From an uncultured Alphaproteobacteria bacterium (GTDB lineage Bacteria; Pseudomonadota; Alphaproteobacteria; HIMB59; GCA-002718135), in the NCBI GenBank assembly GCA_902601455.1, contig CACKNC010000001.1, forward strand, positions 32,240 through 96,239: 64,000 bases of DNA. Reading direction: 5' to 3'. The translations under genes and the position numbers were made by a program. Positions within the stretch are counted from its first letter, which is position 1. Each line of letters opens with the position of its first letter. The notes under the pieces were generated by a model that was not told the DNA's origin, did no database searches, and worked only from the letters and a program-made list of their open reading frames with translations. Below, one piece after another: positions 2,827-26,475 of the stretch.

Positions 2827-2839
2827 ATTATCTCCTAAT

Positions 2840-4673: not shown

Positions 4674-5852
4674 ATGCAAGCTAAACAACGTTTTACTAAT
4701 GTAACTCTTGTTACCCCAATTGGTGAAAAAAACCAAGATCTGCTGGTCAAAGATGATCTTATTGTGGATATTGTTGACAGAGATTCTTCAGTAAGCGATG
4801 ATTTTGAAATTTATGATGGGCGAGATAACTATATTTTCCCTGGGATGATTGATGTCCTTCAGCATGGTTTTTTAAACTACTTGTATGGTCATGCTGAAGA
4901 AAATTGCGCAGTTGATAATGCAAAGCTTTTACCTGAGGTAGGTGTAACAGGTTTTTTACCGTCAACACCTTGCTTGCCTCCAGAACAAACACATGAACTT
5001 CTGAATAATTTATCAAATGATATTGATAAATCAAAAGAGGGAGCAAGAATTCTCGGTATACATTCTGAAGGACCATGCTTTGCTTTACCTGGTGCACATA
5101 ATCCAAAAAATTTGCGTAATCCATCTGAAGAATTAGCAGAAGAATTAATTGATGCAACACATGGTAAATTAAAGGCAGTAACTATTGCTCCTGAGATGGA
5201 AGGATCAGAGATTTTCATTAAGAGATTAAAAAAAGATAACATATCTATTCATTTAGGTCATAGTGGAGCGAAACCTGAAGATGTTCCTATGTTTGCCGAT
5301 TGGGGAGTGGATGCAGTCACTCATATGTATGATGCATTACCAACTTATCCAGCCGATGATACAGGCGTTCATGTACTTTCTTTGACTGATGCATTAATTG
5401 CTGAGCCACGCATTGCTCTTGGGTTAATATGTGATGGCATTCATGTTCATCCACAATTAGTTGAGCTATTATCTCATCTTCCAAGTGATAGAGTTTTCTT
5501 AGAAACTGACTCTGTTAAAGGGTCTGGTTCACCTGTTCCTGTAAAATTTGAATTTTATCCTGGTCGTTGGTGTACAGTAGAAAAAGGTAAAGCATCAACT
5601 TACGATGGTCTTTTAGCAGGATCATCTTTAACTTCTATAGAAGGATTACAAAATTATCTAAAATACTCAAAAAAATCAATTAGCCAAGTTTCTATTGCAG
5701 CTAGTTTGGTTCCTGCAAGAGTAATAGGATTAGATGATAAAATGGGGAGTATTGAAAAAAATAAATTTGCTGATTTTATTTTATTAAGAAAAAATGATTT
5801 AGAAATTGCAGAAACATTTATTGCGGGAAAGTCAGTTTACAAAAGTGATTGA
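4674..5852 (+). CDS. NagA-family amidohydrolase (N-acetylglucosamine-6-phosphate-deacetylase-like)
   Basis: Order of motifs: PGMIDVLQHG, GIHSEGPCF, TIAPE, HLGHSGA, VTHMYDAL, ICDGIHVHP. This matches the NagA metal/substrate motif order. An RBS (AGGAAGG) lies upstream. Confidence 0.65.
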   Translation: MQAKQRFTNVTLVTPIGEKNQDLLVKDDLIVDIVDRDSSVSDDFEIYDGRDNYIFPGMIDVLQHGFLNYLYGHAEENCAVDNAKLLPEVGVTGFLPSTPCLPPEQTHELLNNLSNDIDKSKEGARILGIHSEGPCFALPGAHNPKNLRNPSEELAEELIDATHGKLKAVTIAPEMEGSEIFIKRLKKDNISIHLGHSGAKPEDVPMFADWGVDAVTHMYDALPTYPADDTGVHVLSLTDALIAEPRIALGLICDGIHVHPQLVELLSHLPSDRVFLETDSVKGSGSPVPVKFEFYPGRWCTVEKGKASTYDGLLAGSSLTSIEGLQNYLKYSKKSISQVSIAASLVPARVIGLDDKMGSIEKNKFADFILLRKNDLEIAETFIAGKSVYKSD

Positions 5853-5898
5853 TAAAAATCCTATATCTTTACGTTATCGCGATAAAGGAAATGTGCAT

Positions 5899-6306
5899 AT
5901 GGATTTTCATGGTGCAACAAATACTACTATAAATTTTATTATAGAAAAATATGGCATTGAAACAATGAATGACATTTTTAAAAAAGTAGGAAATGATGTT
6001 TATGCAGATATTAAGAAACATATACAGTCTGGAAATATCAATATGTTGGCTGAACATTGGCAACATTTTTTTGATCGAGAGGGTGCTGATTTTTCTATAT
6101 CCATTAAAGAGAATGAGATTATTTTAACTGTTAAAAGATGCACTGCTTATGAACATGTTAAAAAATTAGTTGGAAAAGTATCGCCAAATTTTTGTGATCA
6201 AACCATTAAAACTAATGAAGCAATTGCAGAAGGTACGCCTTATGAAATAAAAACGGAAATTTTGGGCGAAGCTTCATGTAAACAAATTATTCGTAAAAGA
6301 TTATGA
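5899..6306 (+). CDS. Hypothetical small Cys-motif protein (paralogue of the next gene)
   Basis: The track ORF starts at 5806, inside the NagA-like gene. The ATG at 5899 (MDFHGATN..., AAGGAAA upstream) aligns with the N-terminus of the paralogue at 6303. Shared pattern: xW.H...E...D...L.(K/M)..C......C......C...(I/V)(R/F)K. Confidence 0.45.
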   Translation: MDFHGATNTTINFIIEKYGIETMNDIFKKVGNDVYADIKKHIQSGNINMLAEHWQHFFDREGADFSISIKENEIILTVKRCTAYEHVKKLVGKVSPNFCDQTIKTNEAIAEGTPYEIKTEILGEASCKQIIRKRL

Positions 6307-6785
6307 TACCAAGTGACCATTTTACCCGCTTCTATAATGAAGTATTTAAATTTTTAGAAAAGCAAGGTGAAGAAGATTTAAAGAAATATTGGTTAGAGAT
6401 TAGTAAAAATCAAGAAAAACATACATTGGAATTGTTTAAAGAAAAAGGTTTACAAGGTATGTATGAATATTGGGATCATATTCGAATAGAAGAAAATTGT
6501 GATTTGGATTTAAAATTAGAAGAAGATAATCTTGAATTAAAAATGAATGTTTGTCCAAGTTTAAGTAAGGTTTTGGACAATGATGCAGAACCGATGAAGA
6601 GGTATTGTGATCATTGTGCAGGATGGATAGGTCCTATTATGGATAAGGTTGGATACCACCTAGTATATGATGTGATAGATAGAAATCAACCCCGGTGCGT
6701 AGTTAAAATTTTTAAAGATAAAAAAAAGGCTTTAGAAGAAGAGAAAAATGCAAGACTCTTGATGGATTGGCCTGGTAAAAAATGA
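6303..6785 (+). CDS. Hypothetical small Cys-motif protein (CPS...CDHC...C)
   Basis: 160 aa with a 4-nt overlap with the previous gene. The C-terminal half (MNVCPSLSKV...RYCDHCAGWIGPIM...PRCVVKIFK) aligns by eye with the previous ORF. Confidence 0.5.
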   Translation: MIPSDHFTRFYNEVFKFLEKQGEEDLKKYWLEISKNQEKHTLELFKEKGLQGMYEYWDHIRIEENCDLDLKLEEDNLELKMNVCPSLSKVLDNDAEPMKRYCDHCAGWIGPIMDKVGYHLVYDVIDRNQPRCVVKIFKDKKKALEEEKNARLLMDWPGKK

Positions 6786-6787: not shown

Positions 6788-8134
6788 TTAAGGAAGTTGA
6801 CGTCTTGAAAAAATTAATTGTCTTAAAAAAGTTCTCACACCCATCGCTCCTTCTTCTTTTATCAAAATAAAAGCATTCATAGATACAACAATTATAAAAG
6901 CGCAAATTGCAAAAAGAACTTCATAACTTCCAAGAGTTTTACCAAAAACAACTATGTTATTAGTATCAAGCCAGAGTACTAGATAACCAGCTAAAACTGT
7001 TGTTATTCCTGCAATTAGTCCATCTAAACTATATGCAAGTGACATAAATGATTCTTTATTATTACTCGGTACATAATTTAACATAAAAATGTATCCAATA
7101 GAGGCGCTTCCCCACATTAAGAAGCCAAATAAAAAGAAAACTATTCCTATTACATAACTTAGATAGGGAGTTTCTGAATTTATAAATGGAAGCATTAATA
7201 ATAAAATAATCTGCAAGCTTTGAAATATTACTCTAATGCCTCGGCATCCATAGTTATCAGTTATCCTTCCTACAATAAAACCACTACATGTACCACCAAT
7301 CAAAACGAGCGTAGAAGAAAATATTAATTCTCCAGTGGGTATATTCATTCTAATTTTAAAAAAAAGTGTCAGGAATATTGCTAGCACGGTAATGACTAAA
7401 TATTGAGTACCGGATGAAATTAAAAATAAATTAAAATTTTTATCTTTTGAAGCTGAAAATAAATTTTTTAAATAACCAAGATCATTGTCTCGATTAACAA
7501 TTTTTTTCCCACCTTTAATTTTTATGAGCAGTAAAGCCGAAATAAAACCAGAAATAATTGCAATTATAAAAACAGGGTAAAATCTATCTAATCCCACTCT
7601 ACTATCAAGCCACATTTTAATTGCATAAGATGCTGCAAGTGCAAAAGGTGTGCAAATAATACCATTTATTCCAATAATTCTTCCTCTCACGTCACGCGGT
7701 ATAAATTCTTGCATCCAAGGAACAAAAGCTGCTTCTGATAGGGATCGACATATTGCAAACATTAGCATTGCAAAAAACAATAAATAAAAAACTACTAATA
7801 AGTTATTTTGATAAAGAGGAACTATTAAAAAAATTAAAAGAAAAATATATCGTGTAAATAGAGTAGTTATTGATACAAGCTTACTTCCAAAATAAAGTGT
7901 AATTGGGATACTGATTAATGCTAATACTTGGCAAAAAGCCATGAGACTTCCAAGAATGCCTATTTCATCAGAGCTTAATCCTAATTCTACTGAATACAGA
8001 GTAAGGGGAGCAGCTACTGTACCTATAACAGCACACATTTGGAGTGCCGTAGAGTAATGGTAATAATTTATAACTTTTAACTTTTCAGGTTCATTGGAAA
8101 TAAGCTTAAACATTTTTATGTTACTTACTAACAA
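6788..8134 (-). CDS. MFS-type transporter
   Basis: 448 aa with about 12 hydrophobic segments and a central loop (KGGKKIVNRDND). An alternative start is at 8113 (MFKLIS). It is the last gene of the minus-strand operon. Confidence 0.7.
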   Translation of the reverse strand: MLVSNIKMFKLISNEPEKLKVINYYHYSTALQMCAVIGTVAAPLTLYSVELGLSSDEIGILGSLMAFCQVLALISIPITLYFGSKLVSITTLFTRYIFLLIFLIVPLYQNNLLVVFYLLFFAMLMFAICRSLSEAAFVPWMQEFIPRDVRGRIIGINGIICTPFALAASYAIKMWLDSRVGLDRFYPVFIIAIISGFISALLLIKIKGGKKIVNRDNDLGYLKNLFSASKDKNFNLFLISSGTQYLVITVLAIFLTLFFKIRMNIPTGELIFSSTLVLIGGTCSGFIVGRITDNYGCRGIRVIFQSLQIILLLMLPFINSETPYLSYVIGIVFFLFGFLMWGSASIGYIFMLNYVPSNNKESFMSLAYSLDGLIAGITTVLAGYLVLWLDTNNIVVFGKTLGSYEVLFAICAFIIVVSMNAFILIKEEGAMGVRTFLRQLIFSRRQLP

Positions 8135-9209
8135 TAAATGATTTAATTACGTGTTGGTTATTTTCATAACACCAACAAGTTGCTAGTATTTCATTATTTT
8201 TAAGTCTTACAAGTGATGGTTGTCCAAATTTAAGACTCCCAAATTGCTTAGTGATATTTGTTGAGTCACTACTCATATTTTCGTCTTTAAATAAATCTAG
8301 CTCTTCTAAAATTTCAAATTTATTATTTTCAATATTTACTTTTCTTATTATTAGCCCAGTGGGAAACTCTCTATGAGAGTGAATTGTTAAGATTATATTT
8401 TTATCAAGCCACATTAAATTAGATGCTTGAGCTTTAACCCCAGTATCTATTGCAGTATCAAAACTTTCTCCACCATCGTGTGAATAAACAATATGATTAT
8501 TCAAATTTATTTTTTTTACATTATCATAAGTCCAAAAGATTACTGCCACACCATTATTGTCTATTTCACAAAGTCGACATTCCCAAGTAGCAATTTCACC
8601 TTTAGGAGTATTAAAAAATTCAGATAATTTACTCCAAGTTTTTCCATTATCATCACTGTAGATGATCCATCCAGAATGACCGTTTTCTCCTAAATGAAAA
8701 GGTGGGCATGCACCAAGTATTCTGCCAGAGGATAATTGGATACATGGCCCTGATAGTTCTAGCGGTTTTTCTAAAACACTAAAACTATTTGGTATAGTCC
8801 AGCTTTCACCATTATCGTTTGAAAAACTTATTTTATTTTTTAAAGGGAGCACTTCGAAAGAAATAGGATCGACAATTGGTGTAAGAGGATCGGGTCTTAT
8901 AAATGCATATCCAGTTGCTATAAGACTTCCGTTTTGTAACAACAAAGGTTTTAGCGTATCAGTTTCTTCATGGTTATCATATATATGATTGTGAAGCTGC
9001 ATTGGTGTTGACCAAGTTCTTCCATTATCTTTGCTTTTTGTTACATATGGTCTCTGGTCTGAAGAGTCGAATGCCTGACCAATTGAAAAAATTATTAGTA
9101 GATCATTATTTGGTAATAAACTGACACCGGGAAAAATTCCTTGTCGACTTACTAAAAGAGGGTCTGGATTTTGATATACTATTATTTCTTCCTTTTTTTT
9201 CATTTCCAT
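8121..9209 (-). CDS. BNR/Asp-box repeat protein, sialidase (GH33)-like beta-propeller, no signal peptide
   Basis: Four Asp-boxes: SKDNGRTWS, SNDNGESWT, SDDNGKTWS, SHDGGESF. The N-terminus MEMKKKEEIIVYQNPD is not a signal sequence. Confidence 0.75.
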   Translation of the reverse strand: MEMKKKEEIIVYQNPDPLLVSRQGIFPGVSLLPNNDLLIIFSIGQAFDSSDQRPYVTKSKDNGRTWSTPMQLHNHIYDNHEETDTLKPLLLQNGSLIATGYAFIRPDPLTPIVDPISFEVLPLKNKISFSNDNGESWTIPNSFSVLEKPLELSGPCIQLSSGRILGACPPFHLGENGHSGWIIYSDDNGKTWSKLSEFFNTPKGEIATWECRLCEIDNNGVAVIFWTYDNVKKINLNNHIVYSHDGGESFDTAIDTGVKAQASNLMWLDKNIILTIHSHREFPTGLIIRKVNIENNKFEILEELDLFKDENMSSDSTNITKQFGSLKFGQPSLVRLKNNEILATCWCYENNQHVIKSFIVSK

Positions 9210-10015
9210 TGACTCTCAAACTCTTGATGAAATTGAAATCCTCTAATAGGTGTTGCTTCTCCGCGAGGCTTTGGAGCTACTGGATTCAAAGTGTGTTTTT
9301 TAGAGCCTCTAGCAATTTGTACTGAAAAAAAAGGCCATTTATTAAGATCTGCTTTTACATGTGAAGGAGAATATCTAAAAGTTATACCACATCTTGGTCG
9401 ATCTGAAGAATTCGCATCAGATCCGTGCAAAAGAGCATCAGAGTGAAGAGATATCTCTCCTGCTATTAAATTCATAAAAACAATTTTATTTTTATTAATT
9501 TGATCATCGTCAACTTCTTGATTAAGGATATAATCACTGTTGTTGTTCTCAGTATGCAAATATTTTTTTATCTTATGACTACCTGAAACAATCTTCATTG
9601 CTGAATTATCCTTGTCTGTATCAAAAATTGCAAGCCAAACCGTTACTGAATTTGAAGGTTTTAAAGGCCAATACTGAGAGTCTTGATGCCAAGGAACAAT
9701 ACTTTTACTCAAGGCAGGTTTATAAAAAAATTGCCCACCCCACAAATAAAAATTTGGCCCAAGTAAATCTTCTACATAATCTAAAATTTCAGGAGTGTGT
9801 GCTACATCATAAAATTTTTTACTAGCCTTATGCCACATATTTGTTTTATTGATATCGACGCTACTAGGTAAACGTGTTTTTAATTCATTAAAAAGTAATT
9901 GTAATTCTTCTACCCCTCTTTCAGAAAAAACAGGTAGGTTCTTTATAAAGCCCTCACTATCATATTGAGAAATTTCAGATTTAGTTAACCTTCGAATATT
10001 TTTACTTATTTCCAT
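9200..10015 (-). CDS. PhyH-family Fe(II)/2-oxoglutarate dioxygenase
   Basis: VPWHQDSQYW gives the HxD motif, ISLHSDALLHGSDAN the distal His, and RCGITFRY the 2OG Arg. 271 aa. Confidence 0.75.
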   Translation of the reverse strand: MEISKNIRRLTKSEISQYDSEGFIKNLPVFSERGVEELQLLFNELKTRLPSSVDINKTNMWHKASKKFYDVAHTPEILDYVEDLLGPNFYLWGGQFFYKPALSKSIVPWHQDSQYWPLKPSNSVTVWLAIFDTDKDNSAMKIVSGSHKIKKYLHTENNNSDYILNQEVDDDQINKNKIVFMNLIAGEISLHSDALLHGSDANSSDRPRCGITFRYSPSHVKADLNKWPFFSVQIARGSKKHTLNPVAPKPRGEATPIRGFQFHQEFESQWK

Positions 10016-10862
10016 TATTGTAATCTGTTATTAATTTTTTAAATTTTATTAATTCTTTTTGATCAGCTAACACAGAATGTTTTTTTAAAGGAAATTTTTT
10101 AAAACTTACATCTGCCTGATATTTTTTAAATGCTTTAATTCTTTCTTTTTGAATATCTTGAAAAATTTTATCAAAATTTCTATAACTTTTTGCATGTCTT
10201 GGTGTTTTTGAAGAGTCATTGTGATAACCTAAAATATCTTCAGAAAATAAAAACTGTACATCACTTTTGCTTCCAGAACCTATAGATATAGTTAACATGT
10301 TAGTTATTTTGTTAATTTCAGCCAATATATCTGCTGGAATACACTCTACCTCTACAGCCCAGCATCCAATGTTTTCTAGTTCTTTAATTTCTTCATAAAT
10401 TTTAATGGCTTCTTTCAGTTTTTTTCCTACCGGTTTTACACCACCTGTCCAGGTAGATTTCATTGGAACAAATCCGACATGTCCTTGAAGAGGAATATTA
10501 AATTCACTGATGTATTTTATAAAATTTATATTCCATGAATTTGTATGAATGGAGTCTACGCCTAATTCAATTAGTTTAAAACATTTTCTAGCAATACTCT
10601 CTTTTGATTCATGTTCTGTATATTTAATGCCACAAGTTAGAAATGTATTTGGAGCAGCTTCACGAATTTCTTTTAATCTATCGGCACCTGTTATTAATAA
10701 ATCAATATCTGCTAATTCTGCTGCTGCTGCTTCCTCAGGCGTAATTACATTTATTTGTGTTAGTTTCGTTCTGCCCTTAAGTTCGAGTAAATCTTTGACA
10801 GTGTAGTTCCTATAACCTGCTTGATGAGCTAGTGAATATACTTTCTTGTATTTTTTTTTCAT
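10002..10862 (-). CDS. Divergent PanB (ketopantoate hydroxymethyltransferase) family protein, paralogue 1
   Basis: GHVGFVPMKSTWTGGVKPVGKK, EVECIP, ISIGSGSKSDVQFLFSEDILG and PRHAKSY align by eye with E. coli PanB GHLGLTPQS..GGYKVQGR, LECVP, IGIGAG..DGQILV.HD..G and PKFAKNF. Confidence 0.6.
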   Translation of the reverse strand: MKKKYKKVYSLAHQAGYRNYTVKDLLELKGRTKLTQINVITPEEAAAAELADIDLLITGADRLKEIREAAPNTFLTCGIKYTEHESKESIARKCFKLIELGVDSIHTNSWNINFIKYISEFNIPLQGHVGFVPMKSTWTGGVKPVGKKLKEAIKIYEEIKELENIGCWAVEVECIPADILAEINKITNMLTISIGSGSKSDVQFLFSEDILGYHNDSSKTPRHAKSYRNFDKIFQDIQKERIKAFKKYQADVSFKKFPLKKHSVLADQKELIKFKKLITDYNNGNK

Positions 10863-10865
10863 TTA

Positions 10866-11720
10866 TTAAATATTCACCTTTTGATTATGCAAAAATTTTC
10901 TAAAATTTATCAATTCTTTTTTTTCTAATGAAATTGAATGTTTTTTTGTTGGAAATTTATTTTTTTTAACATCCAATTTAAATTCTTTGAATGCGTTTAT
11001 CCTTTCTTTTTGAAGATTTTGCATTAGATTATCAAAATTCGCATATTGTTTTGCATGTCTTGGAAATTTTATTTGACTTTGACCTAATATATCTTCCGCA
11101 AATAAAAACTGCGCATCAGCAGCATTTCCTGAACCGATAGAAATAGTTACTAAAGATGTCATTTTTGTAATTTCTGCCAAAATATTTTCAGGCACTAGTT
11201 CTACTTCAATTCCCCATGCTCCTGTGTTCTCTATATCTTTAATATCTTTTAAAAGTTCCATTGCTTCTTTTGCTGTTTTGCCAAAAGATCGAATACCGCC
11301 AATCCAAGTTGTTCGTCTTGGTATAAAACCAACATGACTTTGAAAGGGAATTCTAAATTTACTTAAATGTGTCATCCAATCTAAATTCCAATTTTGGCAC
11401 ATCAAAGAGTCTGCACCAGCTTCTATGATTTCAAAAGCTTTTTTTGTTGCCTCTCGTTTTGATGGATTTTCAATAAATGGAACACCAACGGTCATAAACG
11501 TTTTGGCGGCAGCTTTTCTTATTTTATGTAATTCAGGACCAGGACCTGTCAGCAATAAATCTATTCCTGCTTCTTCAGCTGCAGCAGCTTCTTGGGGACT
11601 GGTAACTCTTACTTGGGAGAGTTTCTTTTTACCTTTTAATTCAATGATATCACGTACTGTATAATTACGGTACCCAAGATCATTGTTGATTGAAAAAACT
11701 CTTTTGTATTTTTTGTGCAT
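10866..11720 (-). CDS. Divergent PanB family protein, paralogue 2
   Basis: Roughly half of its positions match the neighbour by eye (YRNYTV+D++ELKG, EAAAAE, SHVGFIPRRTTWIGG, EVELVP, ISIGSGNAADAQFLFAEDILG, PRHAKQY). Confidence 0.6.
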   Translation of the reverse strand: MHKKYKRVFSINNDLGYRNYTVRDIIELKGKKKLSQVRVTSPQEAAAAEEAGIDLLLTGPGPELHKIRKAAAKTFMTVGVPFIENPSKREATKKAFEIIEAGADSLMCQNWNLDWMTHLSKFRIPFQSHVGFIPRRTTWIGGIRSFGKTAKEAMELLKDIKDIENTGAWGIEVELVPENILAEITKMTSLVTISIGSGNAADAQFLFAEDILGQSQIKFPRHAKQYANFDNLMQNLQKERINAFKEFKLDVKKNKFPTKKHSISLEKKELINFRKFLHNQKVNI

Positions 11721-11767
11721 AAAAATTATTCTATATTAATTTTTAACTAGATTTATAAATTTATTAA

Positions 11768-11789
11768 GTTATCATGTAAACATAATAAC
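11768..11789. promoter_or_regulatory. Candidate operator in the divergent promoter: imperfect palindrome GTTATCATGT-AA-ACATAATAAC
   Basis: 9 of 11 arm positions pair. The core ATGT..ACAT fits the generic GntR GT-N-AC operator theme. The right half plus one base (AAACATAATAACT, 11778..11790) recurs exactly at 24546..24558. Confidence 0.3.
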
Positions 11790-11807
11790 TAAAATCAACG
11801 TAAATAT

Positions 11808-12572
11808 ATGAATTTTACTGATAATAAAATAAAAGAAGATTTTAATTCAAATGGATATGCAGCAATTTATTCATTTTTTAATAACGATAAAATTCAAGAA
11901 ATTAAGAATGAAATAGATAGATATATAATTAACATAGTTCCAGCACTACCCAATCATCACGTTTTTTATGAAGATAAATCAGATAAAAGTACTATTAAAA
12001 ACCTTCAACAAATGTTTAACTACGATGATTACTTTAAAAAATTAATTGAAGAGAGTGCAATACAAGAAGTTGCTTCGTTTCTTTTGCAAGAAAAAGCAAT
12101 TCCTAAAAATTTACAATATTTTAACAAACCAGCTGGAGTGGGCAAACCAACACCACCGCATCAAGATGGATATTATTTTATGTTAAAGAAACACAACGCC
12201 GTAACTTGTTGGCTAGCTCTCGAAAAAGTTGATGAAGAAAATGGATGTATCCATTATGTTAAAGGTTCTCATTTAAAGGAAGAATATAGACCTCATGGTA
12301 AATCAAATATACTTGGATTTTCCCAAGGTGTGACTGATTTTGGTACTAATGATGATAAGCTCAATACTGTTTCATTTCCAGGTGAAGCAGGGACTTTCCT
12401 TATACACAATGCTAAAACTATACACTGGGCGGAAGGTAATAAATCTCAAACGAGAACTAGAAAAGCTCTTGGTTTTATATATTATGGAGAGAGCGCAGAA
12501 GAAGATAAGGTAGCACATGAGGCGTATCAACTTAAATTGCGCAAAGAATTGGAACAAAAAAATTTAATATGA
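11808..12572 (+). CDS. PhyH-family Fe(II)/2-oxoglutarate dioxygenase, paralogue A
   Basis: PTPPHQDGYYF gives the HxD motif, FLIHNAKTIHWA the distal His, and RTRKALGFIY the Arg. 254 aa. Confidence 0.75.
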   Translation: MNFTDNKIKEDFNSNGYAAIYSFFNNDKIQEIKNEIDRYIINIVPALPNHHVFYEDKSDKSTIKNLQQMFNYDDYFKKLIEESAIQEVASFLLQEKAIPKNLQYFNKPAGVGKPTPPHQDGYYFMLKKHNAVTCWLALEKVDEENGCIHYVKGSHLKEEYRPHGKSNILGFSQGVTDFGTNDDKLNTVSFPGEAGTFLIHNAKTIHWAEGNKSQTRTRKALGFIYYGESAEEDKVAHEAYQLKLRKELEQKNLI

Positions 12573-13345
12573 ACCTAGAATTCAATATTCCTAACATGGT
12601 TGATTTAAAAAAATCCTATGATGAAGATGGTTATAATCACATCCCTGAATTATTCTCTGCTAGTGACATGGACATTCTTAATAAAGAGTTTAATCGATAT
12701 ATAAAAGACTGCGTCCCTATGATGAAAGACCAAGAAGTGTATTATGTTGATAAATCAAATAAAGATACTTTGATGCAAATGCAAAAATTAGAGGAGTATG
12801 ATAACTTTTTTCATGAATTATTTTTTAATAGTAAAATTAAAGATCTTGCAGCAAATGCCTTAGGGGAAGATGTTGTGCCAAGAGCGATGGAGTATTTTAA
12901 TAAACCTCCAGGTAAGAGTAATCCCACACCTCCCCATCAAGATGGATATTATTTTAATTTAGATAATGATAAAGCTGTTACTGGTTGGTTAGCATTAGAA
13001 GATGTTGATGATGAAAATGGTTGTATTCACTATGTAAAAGGCTCACACAAACATGAATATAGACCTCATGGCAGATCTGAAATATTAGGTTTTTCACAAG
13101 GTGTAACCGACTTTGGTACTGAAGAAGATAAAAAAAATACAGTAAAGTTTGAGGGAAAAGCAGGCATGTTTTTAATGCATGATGCTAAAATTATACATTT
13201 TGCCAGTTCAAACAAATCATCGGTTCGTACTAGAAGGGCTTTTGGTTTTGTTTATCATGGTGTCTCAGCAAAGCATGATGTAGAAAAAGGAAAAGCCTAT
13301 CAAAAAAAATTACATGATGAGCTGAAAGAAAAAAAAATAATCTAA
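12569..13345 (+). CDS. PhyH-family Fe(II)/2-oxoglutarate dioxygenase, paralogue B
   Basis: PTPPHQDGYYF, ENGCIHYVKGSH, GFSQGVTDFGT and FLMHDAKIIHFA closely parallel the upstream gene. 4-nt overlap. Confidence 0.75.
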   Translation: MNLEFNIPNMVDLKKSYDEDGYNHIPELFSASDMDILNKEFNRYIKDCVPMMKDQEVYYVDKSNKDTLMQMQKLEEYDNFFHELFFNSKIKDLAANALGEDVVPRAMEYFNKPPGKSNPTPPHQDGYYFNLDNDKAVTGWLALEDVDDENGCIHYVKGSHKHEYRPHGRSEILGFSQGVTDFGTEEDKKNTVKFEGKAGMFLMHDAKIIHFASSNKSSVRTRRAFGFVYHGVSAKHDVEKGKAYQKKLHDELKEKKII

Positions 13346-13348
13346 TTT

Positions 13349-14269
13349 ATGAAAAATAGAAAAGTGTATATTTCAGGAGATTTAGTGCCTGATAGTGAAG
13401 CTAAGATATCTATTTATGACAGTGCTGTTTTATTAGGTGACACAGTGACAGAATCAACACGTACATTTAATTATAAACCTTTTAAATTAATTGAGCATGT
13501 AGACCGATTATATAAATCTTTAAAATTGACCCGTATTGATCCAGGCATGACTAAAGATGAAATGATCGAAGTAAGTGAAAATTTGCTTGCAGTAAATAAA
13601 GAAACATATGGTGATAATGAAGATTGTTGGTTAGTTCATAATATCTCAAGAGGGTTATCAATTACAGGTGGCAATCCTACTCTGCAGGTAAGTAAGGCAA
13701 CTATCATGATTTATACCCAGCCAATGATTTTACTCCCTTGGGCTAAATTTTACAAAGAAGGATGTCATGCTGTTACTCCGTCAAGCAGAGTAATACCATC
13801 TCAATCTTTAGATCCACGTCTTAAAAATAGAAGTCGACTATTTTATACTTTGGGAGAGATGGAGGCTAAGCTAGTTGATCCTGATGCACAAAGTATAATG
13901 CTTGATATCCATGGAAATGTTGCTGAAAACAAGGGGGGCAATATATTTATAGTCAGAGATGGTAAATTAATTACACCTACTACAGCTAACTGCTTAGAAG
14001 GTTTAACACGTGCCACAACAATTGAAGTTGCTAAATCATTAAATATTGAGGTCATTGAAGCAGTTATTCAACCCTATGATTTATCGACTGCAGATGAGTT
14101 ATTTATGACAAGTACTCCTTATTCAATAATGCCAGCTACTAAATATAACGGTCTGACAATAGCTGATGGAAAAGTAGGCCCAATCACTAAAAAATTACTT
14201 CAAGGTTGGAGTGATAGAGTGGGATTAGATATAGTGAAGCAAGCAGAAGATCAGCTTCACATACATTAA
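13349..14269 (+). CDS. Class IV (fold type IV) aminotransferase, branched-chain / D-amino-acid aminotransferase family
   Basis: ISIYDSAVLLGDTVTE..RTF..KPFKLIEHVDRLYKS, KNRSRL, EGLTRATTIE and ADELFMTST are characteristic class IV motifs. Confidence 0.8.
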   Translation: MKNRKVYISGDLVPDSEAKISIYDSAVLLGDTVTESTRTFNYKPFKLIEHVDRLYKSLKLTRIDPGMTKDEMIEVSENLLAVNKETYGDNEDCWLVHNISRGLSITGGNPTLQVSKATIMIYTQPMILLPWAKFYKEGCHAVTPSSRVIPSQSLDPRLKNRSRLFYTLGEMEAKLVDPDAQSIMLDIHGNVAENKGGNIFIVRDGKLITPTTANCLEGLTRATTIEVAKSLNIEVIEAVIQPYDLSTADELFMTSTPYSIMPATKYNGLTIADGKVGPITKKLLQGWSDRVGLDIVKQAEDQLHIH

Positions 14270-14273
14270 CTTA

Positions 14274-15191
14274 ATGACTATTTTAGAAAGACCCGAGGGA
14301 ATTTGGGGTGCAATTTTATTACCAGTAAAAGATGATAAAATAGATTGGGTTGCTTTCGAAGAACAGGTCAATATTTTATGTGACTCAAGTGTGCATGGCA
14401 TTTATACTAATGGAACAGCAGCAGAATGTCATAATCAAACTGAAGATGAGTTTGATAAATTATCAAATATAGTTTCAACGATAGCTATAAAAAAAAATAA
14501 AAAATTTCAATTAGGTTTAAGTCACACAAATCCGCGTATTTGTCGTGAGAGAGCAAAAAGATTAACTCCGCTAAAACCTGATGGTTTTCAAATAACACTA
14601 CCTGATTGGTGGCCACCAACTTATCAAGAGTCTCTAAATTTTATTATGGGAATGCAGGAAGTTGTGGAAGATACATATCTAATTTTATACAATCCCCCGC
14701 ACGCAAAAGTATTACTTAGTCTGGAAGAAATTTCACAGATGAATGATAAAGCACCAAATCTTATAGGAATAAAATGTGCAGGTGGAGATGAGGCATGGTA
14801 TGAAAAAAGAAGATATTTATTGGGTAATTTTTCTGTTTTTGTTCCTGGCCATAGTGTAGTTTTTGGAAAACCACTTGGTGCCAATGGGTCATACTCAAAC
14901 GTTGCATGCTTTAGCCCAAATGGAGCTGTAAAGATATGGGATTTAATTGATACGGATTTTGAAAAAGCTAAACAAATTGAAAGTAGAATTGTTAATTTTA
15001 TGAAAACACACATTCTTCCGCTTGCAACTAGATTATCTAATACGGGTTTGGATAAATTACTTGCTTGTGTAGGAGGGTGGGGACCAATTTCAGAAAAAGT
15101 ACTATGGCCTTATGAAGGAGCAACATTAGACGAGGTAAATAAAATAAGAGATATTGCTAAGAAAGAACTACCAGAGTTGATGAATGACTAA
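14274..15191 (+). CDS. DapA/DHDPS-family class I (Schiff-base) lyase
   Basis: GIWGAILLPVKDD.IDW.AFEEQVN.L....VHGIYTNGTAAE and IGIKCAGGD (candidate Schiff-base Lys). 305 aa. Confidence 0.65.
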   Translation: MTILERPEGIWGAILLPVKDDKIDWVAFEEQVNILCDSSVHGIYTNGTAAECHNQTEDEFDKLSNIVSTIAIKKNKKFQLGLSHTNPRICRERAKRLTPLKPDGFQITLPDWWPPTYQESLNFIMGMQEVVEDTYLILYNPPHAKVLLSLEEISQMNDKAPNLIGIKCAGGDEAWYEKRRYLLGNFSVFVPGHSVVFGKPLGANGSYSNVACFSPNGAVKIWDLIDTDFEKAKQIESRIVNFMKTHILPLATRLSNTGLDKLLACVGGWGPISEKVLWPYEGATLDEVNKIRDIAKKELPELMND

Positions 15192-16671
15192 AAAAATTTT
15201 TCTTTCAGGAATTTATCACGAAACACATACATTTTTAAGCCAACCTACAACTTTGAATGATTTTATAATTAATATTGGTGATGATATTATTAGAGAAAAC
15301 AAAGGCAATGGCTCACCTACTGATGGTTTCATTGAGTTTGCTTTACAAAAAAACTGGGATATTATTTCAGGAATACAGATGTCTGCAAGACCTTCTGGAA
15401 TAGTAGATGAGGATGCTGAGAATTTTTTTGATACAAATTTTTTTGAAAAATTAGAGCAACATTGCGAAAATATTGATGCAATTTTTTTAATTCTTCATGG
15501 AGCTATGGTTAGTAAAAATCATGATGATTTTGAAGGTGACTTTTTAGAAAAAATTAATCATATTTTAAAGAAAAGAAAAATTACTATTCCAGTGGTGGCT
15601 GTTTTAGATCTTCACGCCAATGTATCTAATAAAATGATTGAAAATAGTAGCTGTGTATATGCTTATAGAAAAAATCCTCACAGTGATTCAAGAGATGCAG
15701 CAATTAAGGCTGCTATAATATTAAATGATTTATTTGATAATTCAAAAGTCAGTCAAGTTAACTATCAAACTAAATATATTTTACCCCCAACAGGTGTGGG
15801 AACAGCGAACGATCCTATGAAATCAGTTTTATTTGAAGCAAATAGAATAGAAAAAAGTGACAAAGATATTATTTGTATTAACGTAATGGCTGGTTACTCT
15901 TATGCTGATATTGCTGATTGTGGTTTTAGTTTAAATTGCTGCACAAAGGGAGATTTAAAAGTTGCAAAAAATTATTTAGTATCCCTTGCTAATGTTCTTG
16001 AAGAAAAAATAAATTTTGGGTACCCTAAAGAAAATACTTTAGAAGAAGTATTAGAAAAAATTAAATCACTACCTGTATTAGATAAACCAATACTACTTAT
16101 TGAGCCTGCAGATAATATTGGAGGAGGTACACCGGGAGATGCAACAGATTTACTAAGTCGTTTATTGGATTCTAACCAAGAGGGAATTGTAGCAATAATT
16201 AATGACCCTGAATCTGCTAAGTATTGTCATCAGCATAATGTAGGTTATGAAATAGGGCTTAATATTGGTGGAAAATTTGATGATTTTCATGGAGCACCAA
16301 TTAAATTAAAAGCTACAATTCAAAAATTATCAAATGGGAAATTTACTCTAAAAAATAAACAATCTCATTTGGCATCCATGATGGGAATGAATATAGATAT
16401 GGGATTATCAGCTGTGGTAAAAAACAAACAACTAACATTATTGTTAACATCAATTAAGACACCTCCAATGGATTTAGGGCAGTTAATTTCACAAGATATT
16501 TCACCAGAAGATGCAAAATTAATAGTCATCAAAGCTGCTGTATCCCATAAAGATGCTTATGATCCAATTGCCTCTCATAGTTTTTATATTGATAGTCAGG
16601 GGTTGTGCACGAGTAATCTCAAAAGATTACCATTCAAAAAAATTGGTAATAAAATTATTTCCCTAAATTAA
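15184..16671 (+). CDS. MlrC-like (M81 family) metallopeptidase
   Basis: 495 aa. The N-terminus IFLSGIYHETHTF matches the MlrC N-terminal HETNTF motif; LILHGAMV and LDLHAN are also present. 8-nt overlap with the previous gene. Confidence 0.7.
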   Translation: MTKKIFLSGIYHETHTFLSQPTTLNDFIINIGDDIIRENKGNGSPTDGFIEFALQKNWDIISGIQMSARPSGIVDEDAENFFDTNFFEKLEQHCENIDAIFLILHGAMVSKNHDDFEGDFLEKINHILKKRKITIPVVAVLDLHANVSNKMIENSSCVYAYRKNPHSDSRDAAIKAAIILNDLFDNSKVSQVNYQTKYILPPTGVGTANDPMKSVLFEANRIEKSDKDIICINVMAGYSYADIADCGFSLNCCTKGDLKVAKNYLVSLANVLEEKINFGYPKENTLEEVLEKIKSLPVLDKPILLIEPADNIGGGTPGDATDLLSRLLDSNQEGIVAIINDPESAKYCHQHNVGYEIGLNIGGKFDDFHGAPIKLKATIQKLSNGKFTLKNKQSHLASMMGMNIDMGLSAVVKNKQLTLLLTSIKTPPMDLGQLISQDISPEDAKLIVIKAAVSHKDAYDPIASHSFYIDSQGLCTSNLKRLPFKKIGNKIISLN

Positions 16672-17969
16672 TTTAGTCTTTTAAATCCATTATGAGCAAT
16701 CGGACCCTCTAATAATTCCATTACATCTCTTCCTTCTTCACACTCTTTAATCATCTGAAAAATAGGTTTTAAGTTTTCTAAATATTCTTTGATTATTGTG
16801 GGAGTATGAGCTGTACATGCATATACAGCTGTTGCAGCTAGATAACCTTTTTTTAACATTTCTTGTGTAATCAAAGTTTTATAAGCTAGAGCATTTTTAC
16901 TTTTAAAAGTGAAAGTTGTTAAAGCAGCTAGCCCATTGATTGAAATAGGTAATTCATATTCTGCAGAAAGTTTCATCCACTCTTTGTTGATATTTTCACC
17001 AATAGACGTAATTTTCTCCCAGGATTTTTCTTTTTCCATTACTTTTAATGTAGCGAGTGCCGCACTAGAACCAATTCTTTCAGTCCAAAAAGTACTACTA
17101 ATAAATGATTTCTCTGCTGCCTGCATAACTTCTCTTTTACCCAAAACAGCAGTAACGGCATAACCATTACCTAGAGCTTTTCCAAACATTGCAACATCCG
17201 GTTCAACATCATACAATTTATGTAGACCCCCATAGTTTTTCCTAAAACCTGAAGTACATTCATCAAATACTAAAACAATATTATATTCATTAGCTAATTT
17301 TCTAACTCGGTGCAGAAAATTATTCTCAGGCTCTTTATTTCGATAAACTTCCATTTTTATGATGCCAATATTTTTAGTTTTGACTAATTCTTCAAGTTTA
17401 TCAAAATTATTATATTCAAATGGATAAACACTATCTTTTAAATTTTTTGGAACTCCATGTGGATCTAAACCTGGAAGTAGATGACCATCTAAACCTTTCG
17501 TGTCAGATAGATTAGAGGCTAAGTACCAGTCATGCCAACCATGATACCCACAAAACGCAACGTTATCTTTTCCTGATGCAGCTCTTGCTAATCTGATTGC
17601 TACAGAATTTGCTTCTCCACCCGATCGAGCGAAACGCGCCATATCTGCCCAAGGATGTAATTCAACAAGTCTTTCAGTTAACTCAACTTCTTCAGGAGCA
17701 TTTAAAGTTGACATGTTGCCACTGTTAATGGTTTCTTTCACTGCGTCGTCTATTTCATCATAATTGTATCCTAGTGAATTAGTGCCTGGCATCATTAATG
17801 TATCTATATATTTCTTGCCATCAAGATCCCATACTTCACACCCTCTACTTTTTGAAAAATATGAAGGCCACTGTTCAGGCAAAAACATTTCAGGTCTTTT
17901 TGATAGTAGCATATTACCACCTGCAACAATCTGCTTTGCTTTAGAGTATAGTTTTTGACCTTTGCCCAT
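16668..17969 (-). CDS. Class III aminotransferase (glutamate-1-semialdehyde aminomutase-like)
   Basis: FARSGGEANSVAIRLAR, VFDECTSGFR and FGKALGNGY (PLP Lys). 433 aa. Its stop overlaps the convergent MlrC-like stop (TTAA). Confidence 0.85.
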   Translation of the reverse strand: MGKGQKLYSKAKQIVAGGNMLLSKRPEMFLPEQWPSYFSKSRGCEVWDLDGKKYIDTLMMPGTNSLGYNYDEIDDAVKETINSGNMSTLNAPEEVELTERLVELHPWADMARFARSGGEANSVAIRLARAASGKDNVAFCGYHGWHDWYLASNLSDTKGLDGHLLPGLDPHGVPKNLKDSVYPFEYNNFDKLEELVKTKNIGIIKMEVYRNKEPENNFLHRVRKLANEYNIVLVFDECTSGFRKNYGGLHKLYDVEPDVAMFGKALGNGYAVTAVLGKREVMQAAEKSFISSTFWTERIGSSAALATLKVMEKEKSWEKITSIGENINKEWMKLSAEYELPISINGLAALTTFTFKSKNALAYKTLITQEMLKKGYLAATAVYACTAHTPTIIKEYLENLKPIFQMIKECEEGRDVMELLEGPIAHNGFKRLN

Positions 17970-17973: not shown

Positions 17974-18903
17974 TTATAACGTCTCCAAAAATTTTATTCC
18001 TGTTAAATCATTTTCTTTAGTTAGTATTTTTAATTCATTTATAATAGTTTTTTCATTCTCTGAATCAATAATACTATTAAAAGGTCTTCGAACATAACCA
18101 GAATCTAAATTAAGCCATTTTAATCCCATTTTAATAAAAGGATACCCTGATTTTTTTAGAGCAAATAAAATAATAATATTTATTTTTTCTTGGATTTTTT
18201 TTGCCTCATTTATATTGTTATTTTTTACTTGTTTGTACATTTTAACAAATAATTCAGGCATTAAATTATAGAAAGATCCAATAATTCCATCTGCTCCTGA
18301 AATTAAACCTGATAAGGCCATTTCATCCATGCCTGAATAAATTTTAAAACTTTCCCCAATTTCTTTTTTAATTTTACTGAAGTTAAAGTGTGTAGGTGCA
18401 GTATATTTTACACCTTTCACATTTTTAATGGATGCTAATCTTTTAAGCATATCTAAATCCATTAAATTTGCATGACTGATATTATATACAGTCATTGGTA
18501 AATTGGTTGACTCAGAAATATCTGCGTAATATTTAAATATTTCATCGTTAGAAAAACCGTAATAAAAAGGGGGAAGGGCAGATAAAGCATCAACGCCAAC
18601 TTTTTCAGCATATTGACCAAGGTCAGTTGTAATTTTTGTGCCAATAGATCCAATATGTGCAATTACTGGAACTCTTCCGTTTACTTCCTCTACAATAATT
18701 TCAATCGCTTGTTTTTTTTCTTCTTGAGACATTAAAAAAGTTTCACCTGTACTGCCTGTTATATAAAGCCCATTTACTCTCGCAGAAATAAGATAGTTTA
18801 CCGTTTTTCTAATGCCCTCTTTATTAATACTCTCATCTTTATTAAAAGAAGTAATCATAGCAGGTATAACACCGTTAAAATTGTTAGGATCGAATTTCGT
18901 CAT
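17974..18903 (-). CDS. N-acetylneuraminate-lyase-like member of the DapA family
   Basis: GLYITGSTGE, VIAHIGS, PPFYYGFS, MTVYNI, VKGVKYT, GADGIIGSFYN and RRPF align by eye with E. coli NanA GLYVGGSTGE, LIAHVG, PFYYPFS, VVYNIP, LKQTS, GADGGIGSTYN and RKPF. Confidence 0.7.
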   Translation of the reverse strand: MTKFDPNNFNGVIPAMITSFNKDESINKEGIRKTVNYLISARVNGLYITGSTGETFLMSQEEKKQAIEIIVEEVNGRVPVIAHIGSIGTKITTDLGQYAEKVGVDALSALPPFYYGFSNDEIFKYYADISESTNLPMTVYNISHANLMDLDMLKRLASIKNVKGVKYTAPTHFNFSKIKKEIGESFKIYSGMDEMALSGLISGADGIIGSFYNLMPELFVKMYKQVKNNNINEAKKIQEKINIIILFALKKSGYPFIKMGLKWLNLDSGYVRRPFNSIIDSENEKTIINELKILTKENDLTGIKFLETL

Positions 18904-20920: not shown

Positions 20921-20922
20921 AA

Positions 20923-22802: not shown

Positions 22803-22828
22803 GGTTTCTTCCCAGATATAAATTCAGA

Positions 22829-22855
22829 AAACTGAGGCCATGTAGGCCTCAGTTT
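22829..22855 (-). terminator. Intra-operon hairpin between the binding-protein gene and the permease genes (attenuating terminator candidate)
   Basis: Perfect 11-bp stem AAACTGAGGCC / GGCCTCAGTTT with loop ATGTA. On the coding (minus) strand the 3' arm runs into TTTTCTGAATTTAT. Confidence 0.4.
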
Positions 22856-22869
22856 ATTAGTTTTTTAAA

Positions 22870-25724: not shown

Positions 25725-25799
25725 TGGGGCGTCGCCAAGCGGTAAGGCATCGGTTTTTGGAGTCGACATTCGCAGGTTCGAATCCTGCCGCCCCAGCCA
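25725..25799 (+). tRNA. tRNA-Gln (anticodon UUG), CCA encoded
   Basis: Acceptor stem TGGGGCG/CGCCCCA, D-arm GCCAAGCGGTAAGGC as in E. coli tRNA-Gln, anticodon loop TTTTGGA, T-arm GCAGGTTCGAATCCTGC, then G-CCA. Confidence 0.9.
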
Positions 25800-26407: not shown

Positions 26408-26475
26408 TCTTAAATTTATCTTATAACATTTTAACCATTTGATGTTATTACTTATTGTATATATTAAAAAAATAT

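Follow-up and report, generated by a model that had tools for sequence, protein, structure and literature searches.

The ten genes at positions 6788-16671 of a 64,000-nucleotide stretch of the alphaproteobacterial contig CACKNC010000001.1 (contig positions 32,240 to 96,239, hereafter the window) lie in two divergent operons, which a first-pass annotation, made from the sequence alone, had treated as a self-contained pair. We find that they instead occupy the middle of an island that spans at least 25 kb (332-25602), whose gene order is preserved in about 21-25 species genomes of one clade of the SAR11 family Pelagibacteraceae. The system is a conserved, uncharacterised catabolic island, built from known superfamilies together with one oxygenase-linked enzyme subfamily of unknown chemistry, to which the PanB-like proteins PanL1 and PanL2 belong. 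Comparison with relatives indicates that the ten-gene pair is made up of an ancient core (PhyH1 and PhyH2, MlrC, BNR and the major facilitator superfamily (MFS) transporter) and of two modules inserted in SAR11. Our leading proposal for its role, to which we give somewhat less than an even chance, is that the island breaks down an acidic amino sugar bearing an N-acyl group, or a small glycoside of such a sugar; nonulosonic acids resembling sialic acid and related amino-sugar acids are candidate substrates.

The ten open reading frames (ORFs), whose coordinates were reproduced exactly from the ORF list, and the spacer between the two operons are as follows.

6788-8134, minus strand: MFS transporter, last gene of the minus operon (MFS_1, 65 bits)
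8121-9209, minus strand: BNR, predicted sialidase-fold six-bladed propeller (BNR_2, 49 bits)
9200-10015, minus strand: PhyH3, Fe(II)/2-oxoglutarate (2OG) dioxygenase of the hydroxylase type, SAR11-specific addition (PhyH, 90.8 bits)
10002-10862, minus strand: PanL2, short PanB-like TIM-barrel protein (Pantoate_transf, 114.6 bits, profile positions 68-257)
10866-11720, minus strand: PanL1, short PanB-like TIM-barrel protein, first gene of the minus operon (Pantoate_transf, 131 bits, profile positions 69-258)
11721-11807, no strand: divergent AT-rich spacer of 87 bp (read from the sequence)
11808-12572, plus strand: PhyH1, Fe(II)/2OG dioxygenase, conserved core (PhyH, 106.7 bits)
12569-13345, plus strand: PhyH2, tandem paralogue of PhyH1 (PhyH, 113.9 bits)
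13349-14269, plus strand: AT-IV, branched-chain aminotransferase (BCAT)-like class IV (fold type IV) aminotransferase, SAR11-specific (Aminotran_4, 130.3 bits)
14274-15191, plus strand: DHDPSa, very divergent Schiff-base lyase of the DHDPS/N-acetylneuraminate lyase superfamily, SAR11-specific (DHDPS, 42.6 bits, a weak match)
15184-16671, plus strand: M81 (MlrC-like) metallo-amidohydrolase, conserved core (DUF1485, 206.6 bits, and MlrC_C, 146.5 bits)

The tight packing described in the first-pass annotation was confirmed. The minus operon has a 3-nt gap followed by overlaps of 14, 10 and 14 nt, the junctions of the plus operon are, in order, an overlap of 4 nt, gaps of 3 and then 4 nt, and an overlap of 8 nt, and the sequence bears out a single 87-bp divergent spacer between them. 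The 14-nt overlap of the MFS and BNR genes assumes a TTG start codon; were translation to begin at the ATG that lies seven codons downstream, a 7-nt gap would take its place. In a hidden Markov model search, all ten proteins scored above the Pfam gathering cut-offs (MFS_1, BNR_2, three times PhyH, twice Pantoate_transf, Aminotran_4, DHDPS, and DUF1485 with MlrC_C), so the family calls hold at the superfamily level. The two pairs that had been judged by eye to match at about half their positions are 52% identical (the PanB-like pair) and 53% identical (PhyH1 and PhyH2), and PhyH3 is 27% identical to PhyH1 and PhyH2. The G+C content of the window is about 31%, and the nearest database proteins are named as Pelagibacteraceae or Alphaproteobacteria, from which we take the DNA to come from a SAR11 genome. 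A promoter and terminator scan was uninformative, its counts being at or below the expectation from shuffled sequence, and Rfam matched no family in the spacer and no riboswitch from which a ligand could be named.

We then asked how far this arrangement is conserved, using 78 loci that a scan of one genome per species had returned, with ORFs labelled by BLAST using the window proteins as probes. The whole arrangement was present in 21 loci, with two more that were truncated, all from Pelagibacteraceae and with protein identities of 62-97%. With the flanking genes described below, the shared order runs on the left from HpcH, the D-Ser-dehydratase-like gene, (RidA), GntR-like and SDR to NagA-like, unkA and unkB; through MFS, BNR, PhyH3, PanL2 and PanL1, which diverge from PhyH1, PhyH2, AT-IV, DHDPSa and MlrC; and on the right to AT-III, DHDPSb and Opp. 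The same gene order in at least 21 species-representative genomes implies that the arrangement is not due to chance. Most SAR11 island genomes also carry an extra divergent BNR gene beside the MFS gene, a copy that the window lacks.

The position of the spacer is filled in five related SAR11 genomes (L001, L018, L023, L025 and L028) by a four-gene insertion (5378-9836 in L001), consisting of a solute-binding protein (SBP_bac_1), two CUT1 permeases and a BNR_3 protein. This BNR_3 carries the canonical sialidase motifs YRVP and SGYSD, whereas the BNR of the window does not. The inserted SBP_bac_1 weakly resembles (E 1e-10) AlgQ1, which binds alginate oligosaccharides, and Streptobacillus family-1 solute-binding proteins, which we take to be glycosaminoglycan-disaccharide binders, the search output naming no ligand. 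We also considered it as a sialic-acid-binding protein and found no specific likeness, only these weak alginate and family-1 matches.

The first-pass annotation had staked its proposal on the genes being co-conserved in other genomes. Within SAR11 this is indeed the case, but the PanB-like, PhyH and BNR trio does not occur together outside one SAR11 clade, so that for the trio the proposal is in part contradicted. Outside that clade, where the PanB-like proteins are at most 67% identical, none of PhyH1/2, AT-IV, DHDPSa, MlrC or BNR was found nearby.

Part of the island proved to be older. Thirteen of its genes are common to islands in Devosia rhodophyticola (L087) and in a Hyphomicrobiales metagenome-assembled genome (L088), at 41-76% identity. 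BNR orthologues are 55-60% identical in Devosia, Maritalea and other Hyphomicrobiales; the identities for the other proteins are as follows.

MlrC-like, L087 and L088: 54-56%
PhyH1/2, L087 and L088: 52-58% (for PhyH1 54-58%, beside MlrC)
MFS, L087 and L088: 41-46%
unkB, L087 and L088: 76%
unkA, L087 and L088: 59-60%
NagA-like, L087 and L088: 50-54%
SDR, L087 and L088: 64-66%
GntR-like, L087 and L088: 49-50%
RidA, L087 and L088: 71-73%
D-Ser-dehydratase-like, L088: 55%
HpcH, L088: 58%
FA_hydroxylase, L088: 42%

A second BNR paralogue is present in the Hyphomicrobiales islands, and L088 has two copies of the PhyH1/2 type, as in the window. The MFS proteins of L087 and L088 are fused to HEAT repeats, giving lengths of 742-763 amino acids (aa) versus 448 aa in the window. 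Absent within 10 kb in both loci are PanL1, PanL2, PhyH3, AT-IV, DHDPSa, AT-III, the second DHDPS and Opp. An AraC-type regulator (9183-9989 in L087, 9178-9984 in L088) stands between PhyH and BNR, at the place where SAR11 has PanL1, PanL2 and PhyH3. Because the PanL pair with PhyH3, and AT-IV with DHDPSa, are missing from the Hyphomicrobiales islands, we regard both sets as SAR11-only insertions. In L088, NanE and an ROK kinase adjoin the island.

The genes that surround the ten-gene pair in the window, up to the tRNA gene at its right edge, are these (PLP, pyridoxal phosphate).

332-1156, plus strand: HpcH/HpaI-type (GarL/HpaI-like) 2-keto-3-deoxy-acid aldolase, left-most island gene in the window (HpcH_HpaI, 90 bits)
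1156-2436, plus strand: PLP-dependent D-Ser-dehydratase-like or D-threonine-aldolase-like protein, candidate amino-sugar-acid deaminase (Pfam D-ser_dehydrat)
2437-2850, minus strand: RidA-family enamine/imine deaminase (TIGR00004, 93.7 bits versus a cut-off of 106)
2840-3835, minus strand: 331-aa regulator with a weak GntR-type helix-turn-helix (Pfam GntR, E 8e-4, under the cut-off)
3832-4593, minus strand: short-chain dehydrogenase/reductase (SDR), a glucose-1-dehydrogenase-like sugar dehydrogenase (adh_short_C2; NF005559, 205 bits versus a cut-off of 215)
4674-5852, plus strand: NagA-like N-acetyl amino-sugar deacetylase (TIGR00221 nagA, 201.6 bits versus a cut-off of 225.65)
5806-6306, plus strand: unkA, small Cys-containing protein (no Pfam family)
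6303-6785, plus strand: unkB, small Cys-containing protein (no Pfam family)
16668-17969, minus strand: AT-III, class III aminotransferase (glutamate-1-semialdehyde aminomutase/GntE-like), convergent with the MlrC-like gene (Aminotran_3, 140 bits)
17974-18903, minus strand: DHDPSb, N-acetylneuraminate-lyase-like (NanA-like) aldolase (DHDPS, 251 bits)
18904-24477, minus strand: Opp/Dpp-type ATP-binding cassette (ABC) transporter, with two ATPases, two permeases and an SBP_bac_5 protein (Pfam; syntenic in SAR11 loci)
24604-25602, minus strand: membrane FA_hydroxylase-type di-iron oxygenase, last island gene before tRNA-Gln (FA_hydroxylase, 68.5 bits)
25725-25799, plus strand: tRNA-Gln, right edge of the island (ARAGORN and Rfam)

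The left end of the island is at or beyond the start of the window. The HpcH aldolase is best matched in NCBIfam by HpaI and GarL, both under cut-off; the D-Ser-dehydratase-like enzyme, which is syntenic in SAR11 loci, has a weak match to BhcC there; and AT-III, likewise syntenic, has only matches under cut-off. The assignment of DHDPSb is closer: it reaches 273.7 bits against a cut-off of 281 for the N-acetylneuraminate lyase model NF003164 (TIGR00683, 229.9 versus 382; dapA, 170), and it has the motifs GSTGE, YN, K (VKGVK) and YSGMDE. No Pfam family was found for unkA or unkB even at E<=5. The two are nevertheless syntenic in all SAR11 island loci and always separate the NagA-like gene from a BNR or MFS gene; they probably form a two-subunit component of the pathway that has yet to be characterised.

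Two side observations concern the right-hand part of the island. The SBP_bac_5 protein (22870-24477, minus strand) has a permuted domain order relative to solved peptide-binding proteins, its residues 28-128 aligning to about 273-406 of solved binding proteins and its residues 284-530 to about 33-254; possible causes are circular permutation, the joining of two partial genes and an artefact of assembly. Beyond tRNA-Gln comes tRNA-Arg (26476-26552, plus strand), which falls inside an automatically called opposite-strand SH3-domain ORF (25859-26629, minus strand) whose TTG start is probably over-extended.

What might such an island degrade? The NanA-like and NagA-like enzymes, the SDR, RidA, the PLP-dependent deaminase, HpcH, the sialidase-fold proteins, the sialidase of the variant islands and the NanE and ROK genes in L088 together favour an acidic N-acyl amino sugar, handled without phosphorylation. 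From the gene content, synteny, orthology, motifs and folds we infer a substrate class, an order of steps and the individual reactions, all of them conditional. The substrate would be taken up by the MFS and Opp-type ABC transporters, to which some genomes add a CUT1 ABC transporter together with a cytoplasmic sialidase of the canonical type, and would then be processed by the sialidase-fold proteins. The NanA-like lyase would release pyruvate and an N-acyl hexosamine, the NagA-like enzyme would remove the N-acyl group, and the SDR would oxidise C1. Alpha,beta-elimination and deamination by the D-Ser-dehydratase-like enzyme with RidA would follow, and then aldol cleavage by HpcH. Within the ancient core, the probable task of PhyH1, PhyH2 and the M81 protein is to hydroxylate the substrate and to remove the acyl group from an unusual amide substituent that it carries. 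As for the SAR11 modules, PanL1-PanL2-PhyH3 may be a couple of an oxygenase with PanB-derived TIM barrels, and AT-IV with DHDPSa would remove the amino group and cleave the resulting keto acid.

The properties of the individual proteins bear on this proposal. The AlphaFold2 model of BNR (pLDDT 91.9) matches Dfer_1899 in Foldseek with TM 0.78, and it matches sialidases with TM 0.64-0.75 at 13-17% identity. The protein is cytoplasmic, with four Asp boxes and a six-bladed propeller. In a profile alignment G-I-F-P stands opposite the Y-R-I-P of the Porphyromonas gingivalis sialidase, so that the catalytic Arg of the RIP motif is missing; of 55 orthologues, 53 have I, V, T or M at the corresponding position 25. 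The last blade has no conserved Tyr, F323 being invariant and position 348 mostly F. H277-x-H279-R280-E281 is invariant, and in the profile alignment an invariant D48 lies next to the column of sialidase D219. Judged by its model and motifs, then, the fold of BNR is that of a sialidase, but the protein is no canonical member of that group.

The three PhyH proteins, which score 90.8, 106.7 and 113.9 bits where the cut-off is 22, keep the HxD...H triad and the distal Arg (RxR), as read from their sequences, with PWHQDSQY or PPHQDGYY motifs (the latter in PhyH1; the HxD of PhyH3 is H110 and D112). The Asp in the triad implies that they are of the hydroxylase and not the halogenase type. None of them falls into a characterised subfamily such as EctD, PhnY* or the SyrB2 type, the best NCBIfam matches being 15-53 bits against cut-offs of 150-550. 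AT-IV scores 130.3 bits against the Aminotran_4 cut-off of 28.5, its closest entries in the PDB are archaeal BCATs (168 bits), and by pattern, with the numbering of Escherichia coli IlvE as guide, it has the catalytic Lys K159 and the PLP-N1 Glu E193. It stays below the equivalog cut-offs of PRK08320 (205 bits versus 363), ilvE_I (164 versus 245.55) and D-amino-acid aminotransferase (113 versus 277), and it is assigned to none of IlvE, Dat and PabC. DHDPSa is at 42.6 bits against a Pfam cut-off of 22.1 and at no more than 41 bits to any solved structure; it keeps the Schiff-base K167 ('GIK') and Y139 ('YNPP'), with GTAAE in place of GTTGE or GSTGE, and is far below dapA (40.1 bits versus 206.15) and nanA (24.9 versus 382). 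The M81 protein reaches 89.5 bits against the cut-off of 999 of the MlrC exception model, far from MlrC proper, and its nearest solved structures are 3IUU and the MlrC structure 7YLQ. The MFS protein of the window matches no NCBIfam model.

Several results weigh against an acidic amino sugar as the substrate. No NanE, ROK (NanK) or NagB was found by a Pfam scan of every gene in 332-25602. None of the ten proteins reaches an NCBIfam equivalog cut-off, and the flank proteins are all under theirs as well. The window BNR, lacking the RIP Arg and the conserved Tyr, may not be a glycosidase. On the transport side, the likeness of the inserted SBP_bac_1 to acidic-sugar binders is weak (E 1e-10), and when we considered SBP_bac_5 as a sialic-acid binder, only peptide, nickel and opine binders were matched. 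Finally, the BCAT-like aminotransferase, the M81 'peptidase' and the Opp transporter are no less compatible with a peptide or an amino acid as the substrate.

This last point leads to an alternative along the lines of the first-pass annotation, in which an amino acid, a D-amino-acid peptide or an osmolyte would be imported by Opp or MFS, released by M81, hydroxylated by PhyH, transaminated by AT-IV and cleaved by the DHDPS-type lyase, the PanB-like proteins or both, to give pyruvate and one-carbon (C1) tetrahydrofolate (THF). PhyH enzymes commonly hydroxylate amino-acid-like substrates, and EctD and SyrB2 are among the PDB matches of the PhyH proteins. A BCAT-like fold-IV aminotransferase, an M81/MlrC-like protein, an Opp/Dpp-type transporter whose binding protein resembles peptide binders, and a Schiff-base lyase that keeps its Lys and Tyr would all have a place in such a route. 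However, AT-IV, DHDPSa and both PanB-like proteins are absent from the orthologous Hyphomicrobiales islands, which makes them accessories and not the backbone of the pathway. Furthermore, the PanB-like proteins have no metal or 2-oxo-acid site, no folate genes recur near their family, and the flanks are of a sugar type (NanA-like, NagA-like, SDR, HpcH, sialidase-fold, with NanE and ROK in L088). We consider this alternative unlikely, although worth keeping in mind: the flanks and the variant islands point away from an amino acid or osmolyte and towards an acidic N-acyl amino sugar.

The statement that the PanB-like proteins have lost a metal site comes from an examination of their active sites. 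Their Pantoate_transf match covers only profile positions 68-258 of 259, leaving the N-terminal third unmatched, and they are far below the cut-offs of TIGR00222 panB (99.7 bits and, for PanL2, 84.7 bits, versus 207.55) and NF001452 (118.6 and 100.1 bits versus 272). We aligned PanL1, PanL2 and about 30 relatives with solved PanBs and with two true PanBs (P0257 and P0270). In both proteins and the relatives, a deletion has removed the GDS motif and the loop of about 20 residues that follows; Gly, Ser or other residues stand in for the Asp of 'ADLPF'; and 'VKLEGG', the K-x-E strand, is replaced by a strand two residues shorter. Retained are GHVG, the VE-E glutamates, SxGSG, D..LF..D.LG and a family-specific PRHAK motif, with E172 and E174 invariant. 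We take the lost residues to be the Mg2+ and ketopantoate-carboxylate ligands of E. coli PanB in 1M3U (D45/S46, D84 and K112/E114), and the conserved Glu of the 'VLE' strand to be its E181. The PanB enolate has been described as a Mg2+ complex (PMC4814558).

The overall structure, by comparison, is preserved. An AlphaFold model of PanL1, built from a 65-sequence alignment, has a pLDDT of 92, and its top 28 Foldseek matches are all PanB (TM 0.60-0.73, 20-25% identity), with other members of the isocitrate lyase/phosphoenolpyruvate mutase superfamily far behind. As far as models and alignments can tell, PanL1 and PanL2 have kept the PanB fold and lost the PanB active site. The first-pass annotation had suggested that they transfer a hydroxymethyl group from a 2-oxo acid back to THF. 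This is without direct support, since the Mg2+ and 2-oxo-acid motifs are missing and no folate or C1 genes recur as neighbours.

PanL1 and PanL2 belong to a large family, with 2828 representatives at E<=1e-3, of which about 66 are at E<=1e-30, many of them full-length and of the short type; a profile of the short type finds at least 3967 clusters at E<=1e-20. Its hosts include Sinorhizobium, Rhizobium, Kineosporia, Thiothrix, many Burkholderiales, SAR116 and SAR11, and every source labels it '3-methyl-2-oxobutanoate hydroxymethyltransferase'. In a neighbour-joining tree PanL1 and PanL2 are not sisters: each groups with single-copy SAR11 paralogues from other contexts, implying that the tandem pair arose by an early duplication that has been kept, as part of a marine expansion of the family. 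The copies linked to MocD branch deeper, as a separate clade. An obligate PanL1-PanL2 heteromer is unsupported across the family, most loci having a single copy, and an apparent natural fusion of two PanB-like domains (P0124, 542 aa), which would have favoured such a heteromer, has identical halves and is probably an artefact of assembly or gene calling.

We also looked at what this family sits beside. Pantothenate and folate genes (panC, panD and folK) were absent among the annotated neighbours in the window and in about 85 loci. Oxygenases were frequent: members of four families (PhyH, FA_desaturase/MocD-type, FA_hydroxylase and Rieske) lie within 3 kb in 13 of 63 PanB-like loci outside the island, directly adjacent in nine of the 13, with a density of 5.2 per 100 kb within 3 kb of the PanB-like gene versus 0.8 per 100 kb farther out. 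PhyH3-like genes adjoin PanB-like genes in L070 and L085, and relatives of the island FA_hydroxylase stand directly beside PanB-like genes in six SAR11-type loci (L032-L036 and L039). In one of these, from the SAR11 single-amplified genome AG-447-J18 (L036, 5127-20833), an FA_hydroxylase and an FA_desaturase gene are each followed by their own PanB-like gene; Rieske and reductase genes are close by, and the whole set belongs to a CUT1/GMC/lactonase/ILVD sugar cluster. Single SAR11 genomes, as in L035 and L036, hold three or four paralogues of the short PanB-like type, a notable expansion for a streamlined genome.

Similar surroundings recur in other bacteria. Sinorhizobium has an FA_desaturase-Rieske-reductase set that resembles MocDEF, followed by a PanB-like gene and then PurU; in Kineosporia the PanB-like gene comes after a Rieske gene in a GFO_IDH_MocA/AP_endonuc_2 sugar cluster; Thiothrix has it in a similar MocD-containing cluster; and elsewhere it adjoins AP_endonuc_2, ThuA and sugar ABC genes. 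In a census of 83 neighbours (within two genes on either side) at 20 low-GC marine loci, the recurrent families were FA_hydroxylase (6), MaoC (5), an RraA-like aldolase (4), ILVD/EDD (3) and FA_desaturase (3), with SDR, gluconolactonase, UxuA and 2-keto-3-deoxy-6-phosphogluconate aldolase also recurring. No folate or C1 family (GCV_T, FolD, MTHFR or SHMT) was recurrent in these loci. About 25 Burkholderiales loci have housekeeping neighbours instead, such as QueA and Tgt. In two unrelated metagenomic or genomic contexts (L002 and L006) a short PanB-like gene lies beside a sulfatase gene, which hints that some members of the family take part in sulfated-carbohydrate catabolism. The best-supported interpretation of the neighbourhoods is that the PanB-like family would work with an oxygenase in sugar-type catabolism.

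A more specific version of this idea is oxidative demethylation, in which PhyH would hydroxylate an O- or N-methyl group of a methylated (amino) sugar, the PanB-like proteins would load the resulting hydroxymethyl group or formaldehyde onto THF, and the remainder of the island would degrade the skeleton. It would explain why PanB-like genes adjoin oxygenases of four unrelated families, why each oxygenase of L036 has a PanB-like gene of its own, and why a MocDEF-like oxygenase, a PanB-like gene and PurU follow one another in Sinorhizobium. Genuine PanB uses methylene-THF (PMC4814558), and SAR11, whose oxidation of methyl groups runs through THF, reportedly has no formaldehyde-activating enzyme (PMC3160333). 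On the other hand, PurU is adjacent in that one locus only; GCV_T, FolD, MTHFR and SHMT do not recur; the residues that define PanB chemistry are missing; and there are the Burkholderiales loci with their housekeeping neighbours. A link of the family to folate or C1 metabolism thus finds little support, and demethylation as the role of the island strikes us as improbable. The same doubt attaches to the generalisation that the PanB-like proteins are a PanB-derived enzyme class, obligate partners of O2-dependent hydroxylases, that moves hydroxymethyl groups or formaldehyde from the demethylation or C-methyl hydroxylation of sugars to THF; we think this rather doubtful. If it were true, SAR11 would harvest the methyl groups of methylated (amino) sugars through THF-linked C1 oxidation, and the PanB-like proteins would supply the 'formaldehyde-activating' function thought to be missing in SAR11.

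The possibility that the genes form no functional unit, being unrelated neighbours brought together by genome streamlining or in a hypervariable region beside tRNA genes, could appeal to the tRNA genes at which the island ends, to the gain and loss of modules between genomes and to the many other contexts of PanB-like genes, but it is very remote given the order kept in at least 21 species genomes at 62-97% identity, the 13-gene core common to two orders, junctions that overlap or are at most 4 nt apart, and the chemical coherence of the predicted enzyme activities.

The island is of interest beyond this locus. SAR11 is the most abundant ocean heterotroph and has very few catabolic islands. 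The metagenomic clusters of the island proteins contain up to about 1000 member sequences per 90% cluster and, with the abundance of SAR11, this suggests that the substrate is probably a quantitatively relevant, currently unassigned part of marine dissolved organic matter. The pathway is open to experiment through cultured bacteria that have a related core island, in Maritalea and in Devosia (Devosia rhodophyticola and Devosia sp. Root413D1). A separate consequence concerns annotation: thousands of genes called '3-methyl-2-oxobutanoate hydroxymethyltransferase' fall in a subfamily without the PanB active site, and their mis-annotation is systematic, including the false inference of pantothenate biosynthesis.

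The first-pass annotation had recognised no characterised pathway in this gene set, and we likewise found none in the literature or in NCBIfam; literature searches gave nothing relevant on the gene combination, on PanB paralogues linked to demethylases or on the use of sialic acid by SAR11. The island can nevertheless be compared with known systems that share some of its parts. Relative to PanB (EC 2.1.2.11; 1M3U, 1O66, 3VAV, 3EZ4 and 1OY0), the PanL proteins have the same TIM-barrel fold and keep GHVG, VE-E and SxGSG, but they are only 20-25% identical and are without the GDS loop, the second Asp and the K-x-E strand. Like microcystinase MlrC, the M81 protein of the window has both M81 domains at full length; unlike it, the gene has no mlrA, mlrB or mlrD among its annotated neighbours, and this type of M81 gene is conserved beside PhyH and sialidase-fold genes across two orders.

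Rhizopine is 3-O-methyl-scyllo-inosamine, and its catabolism depends on the MocDEF oxygenase with MocA and MocC; we know of no PanB-like component of the moc system. The PanB-like proteins of Sinorhizobium, Kineosporia, Thiothrix and the SAR11 single-amplified genome share with it a context of FA_desaturase-type oxygenase, Rieske ferredoxin, reductase, GFO_IDH_MocA and AP_endonuc_2, whereas the window uses 2OG dioxygenases of the PhyH type and not a MocD-type enzyme.

Two systems come closest to the proposed route. From canonical sialic-acid catabolism (NanA, NanK, NanE, NagA, NagB, NanT and sialidase), the island has a NanA-like protein near the cut-off, a NagA-like protein, an MFS transporter and sialidase-fold proteins. 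Its downstream steps, however, look non-phosphorylative, and it adds three 2OG dioxygenases, an M81 protein, two aminotransferases and two PanB-like proteins. In the Ong pathway for oxidised chitin in Pseudoalteromonas, it has been shown experimentally that GlcNAc1A is converted to GlcN1A and then to 2-keto-3-deoxygluconate (KDG) by OngB, OngC, OngD/RidA and KdgK (PMC9537276). The deacetylase of the window is of the NagA type, in contrast to the D-aminoacylase type of the Ong enzyme; in place of KdgK there are an HpcH aldolase and an SDR; and GH20, lytic polysaccharide monooxygenases and TonB receptors are not part of the island. What the two would have in common, from the fourth to the seventh of the proposed steps, is N-deacetylation, PLP-dependent deamination, of the 'D-amino-acid' type, of a 2-amino aldonic acid, a RidA partner and a route that proceeds with no prior phosphorylation.

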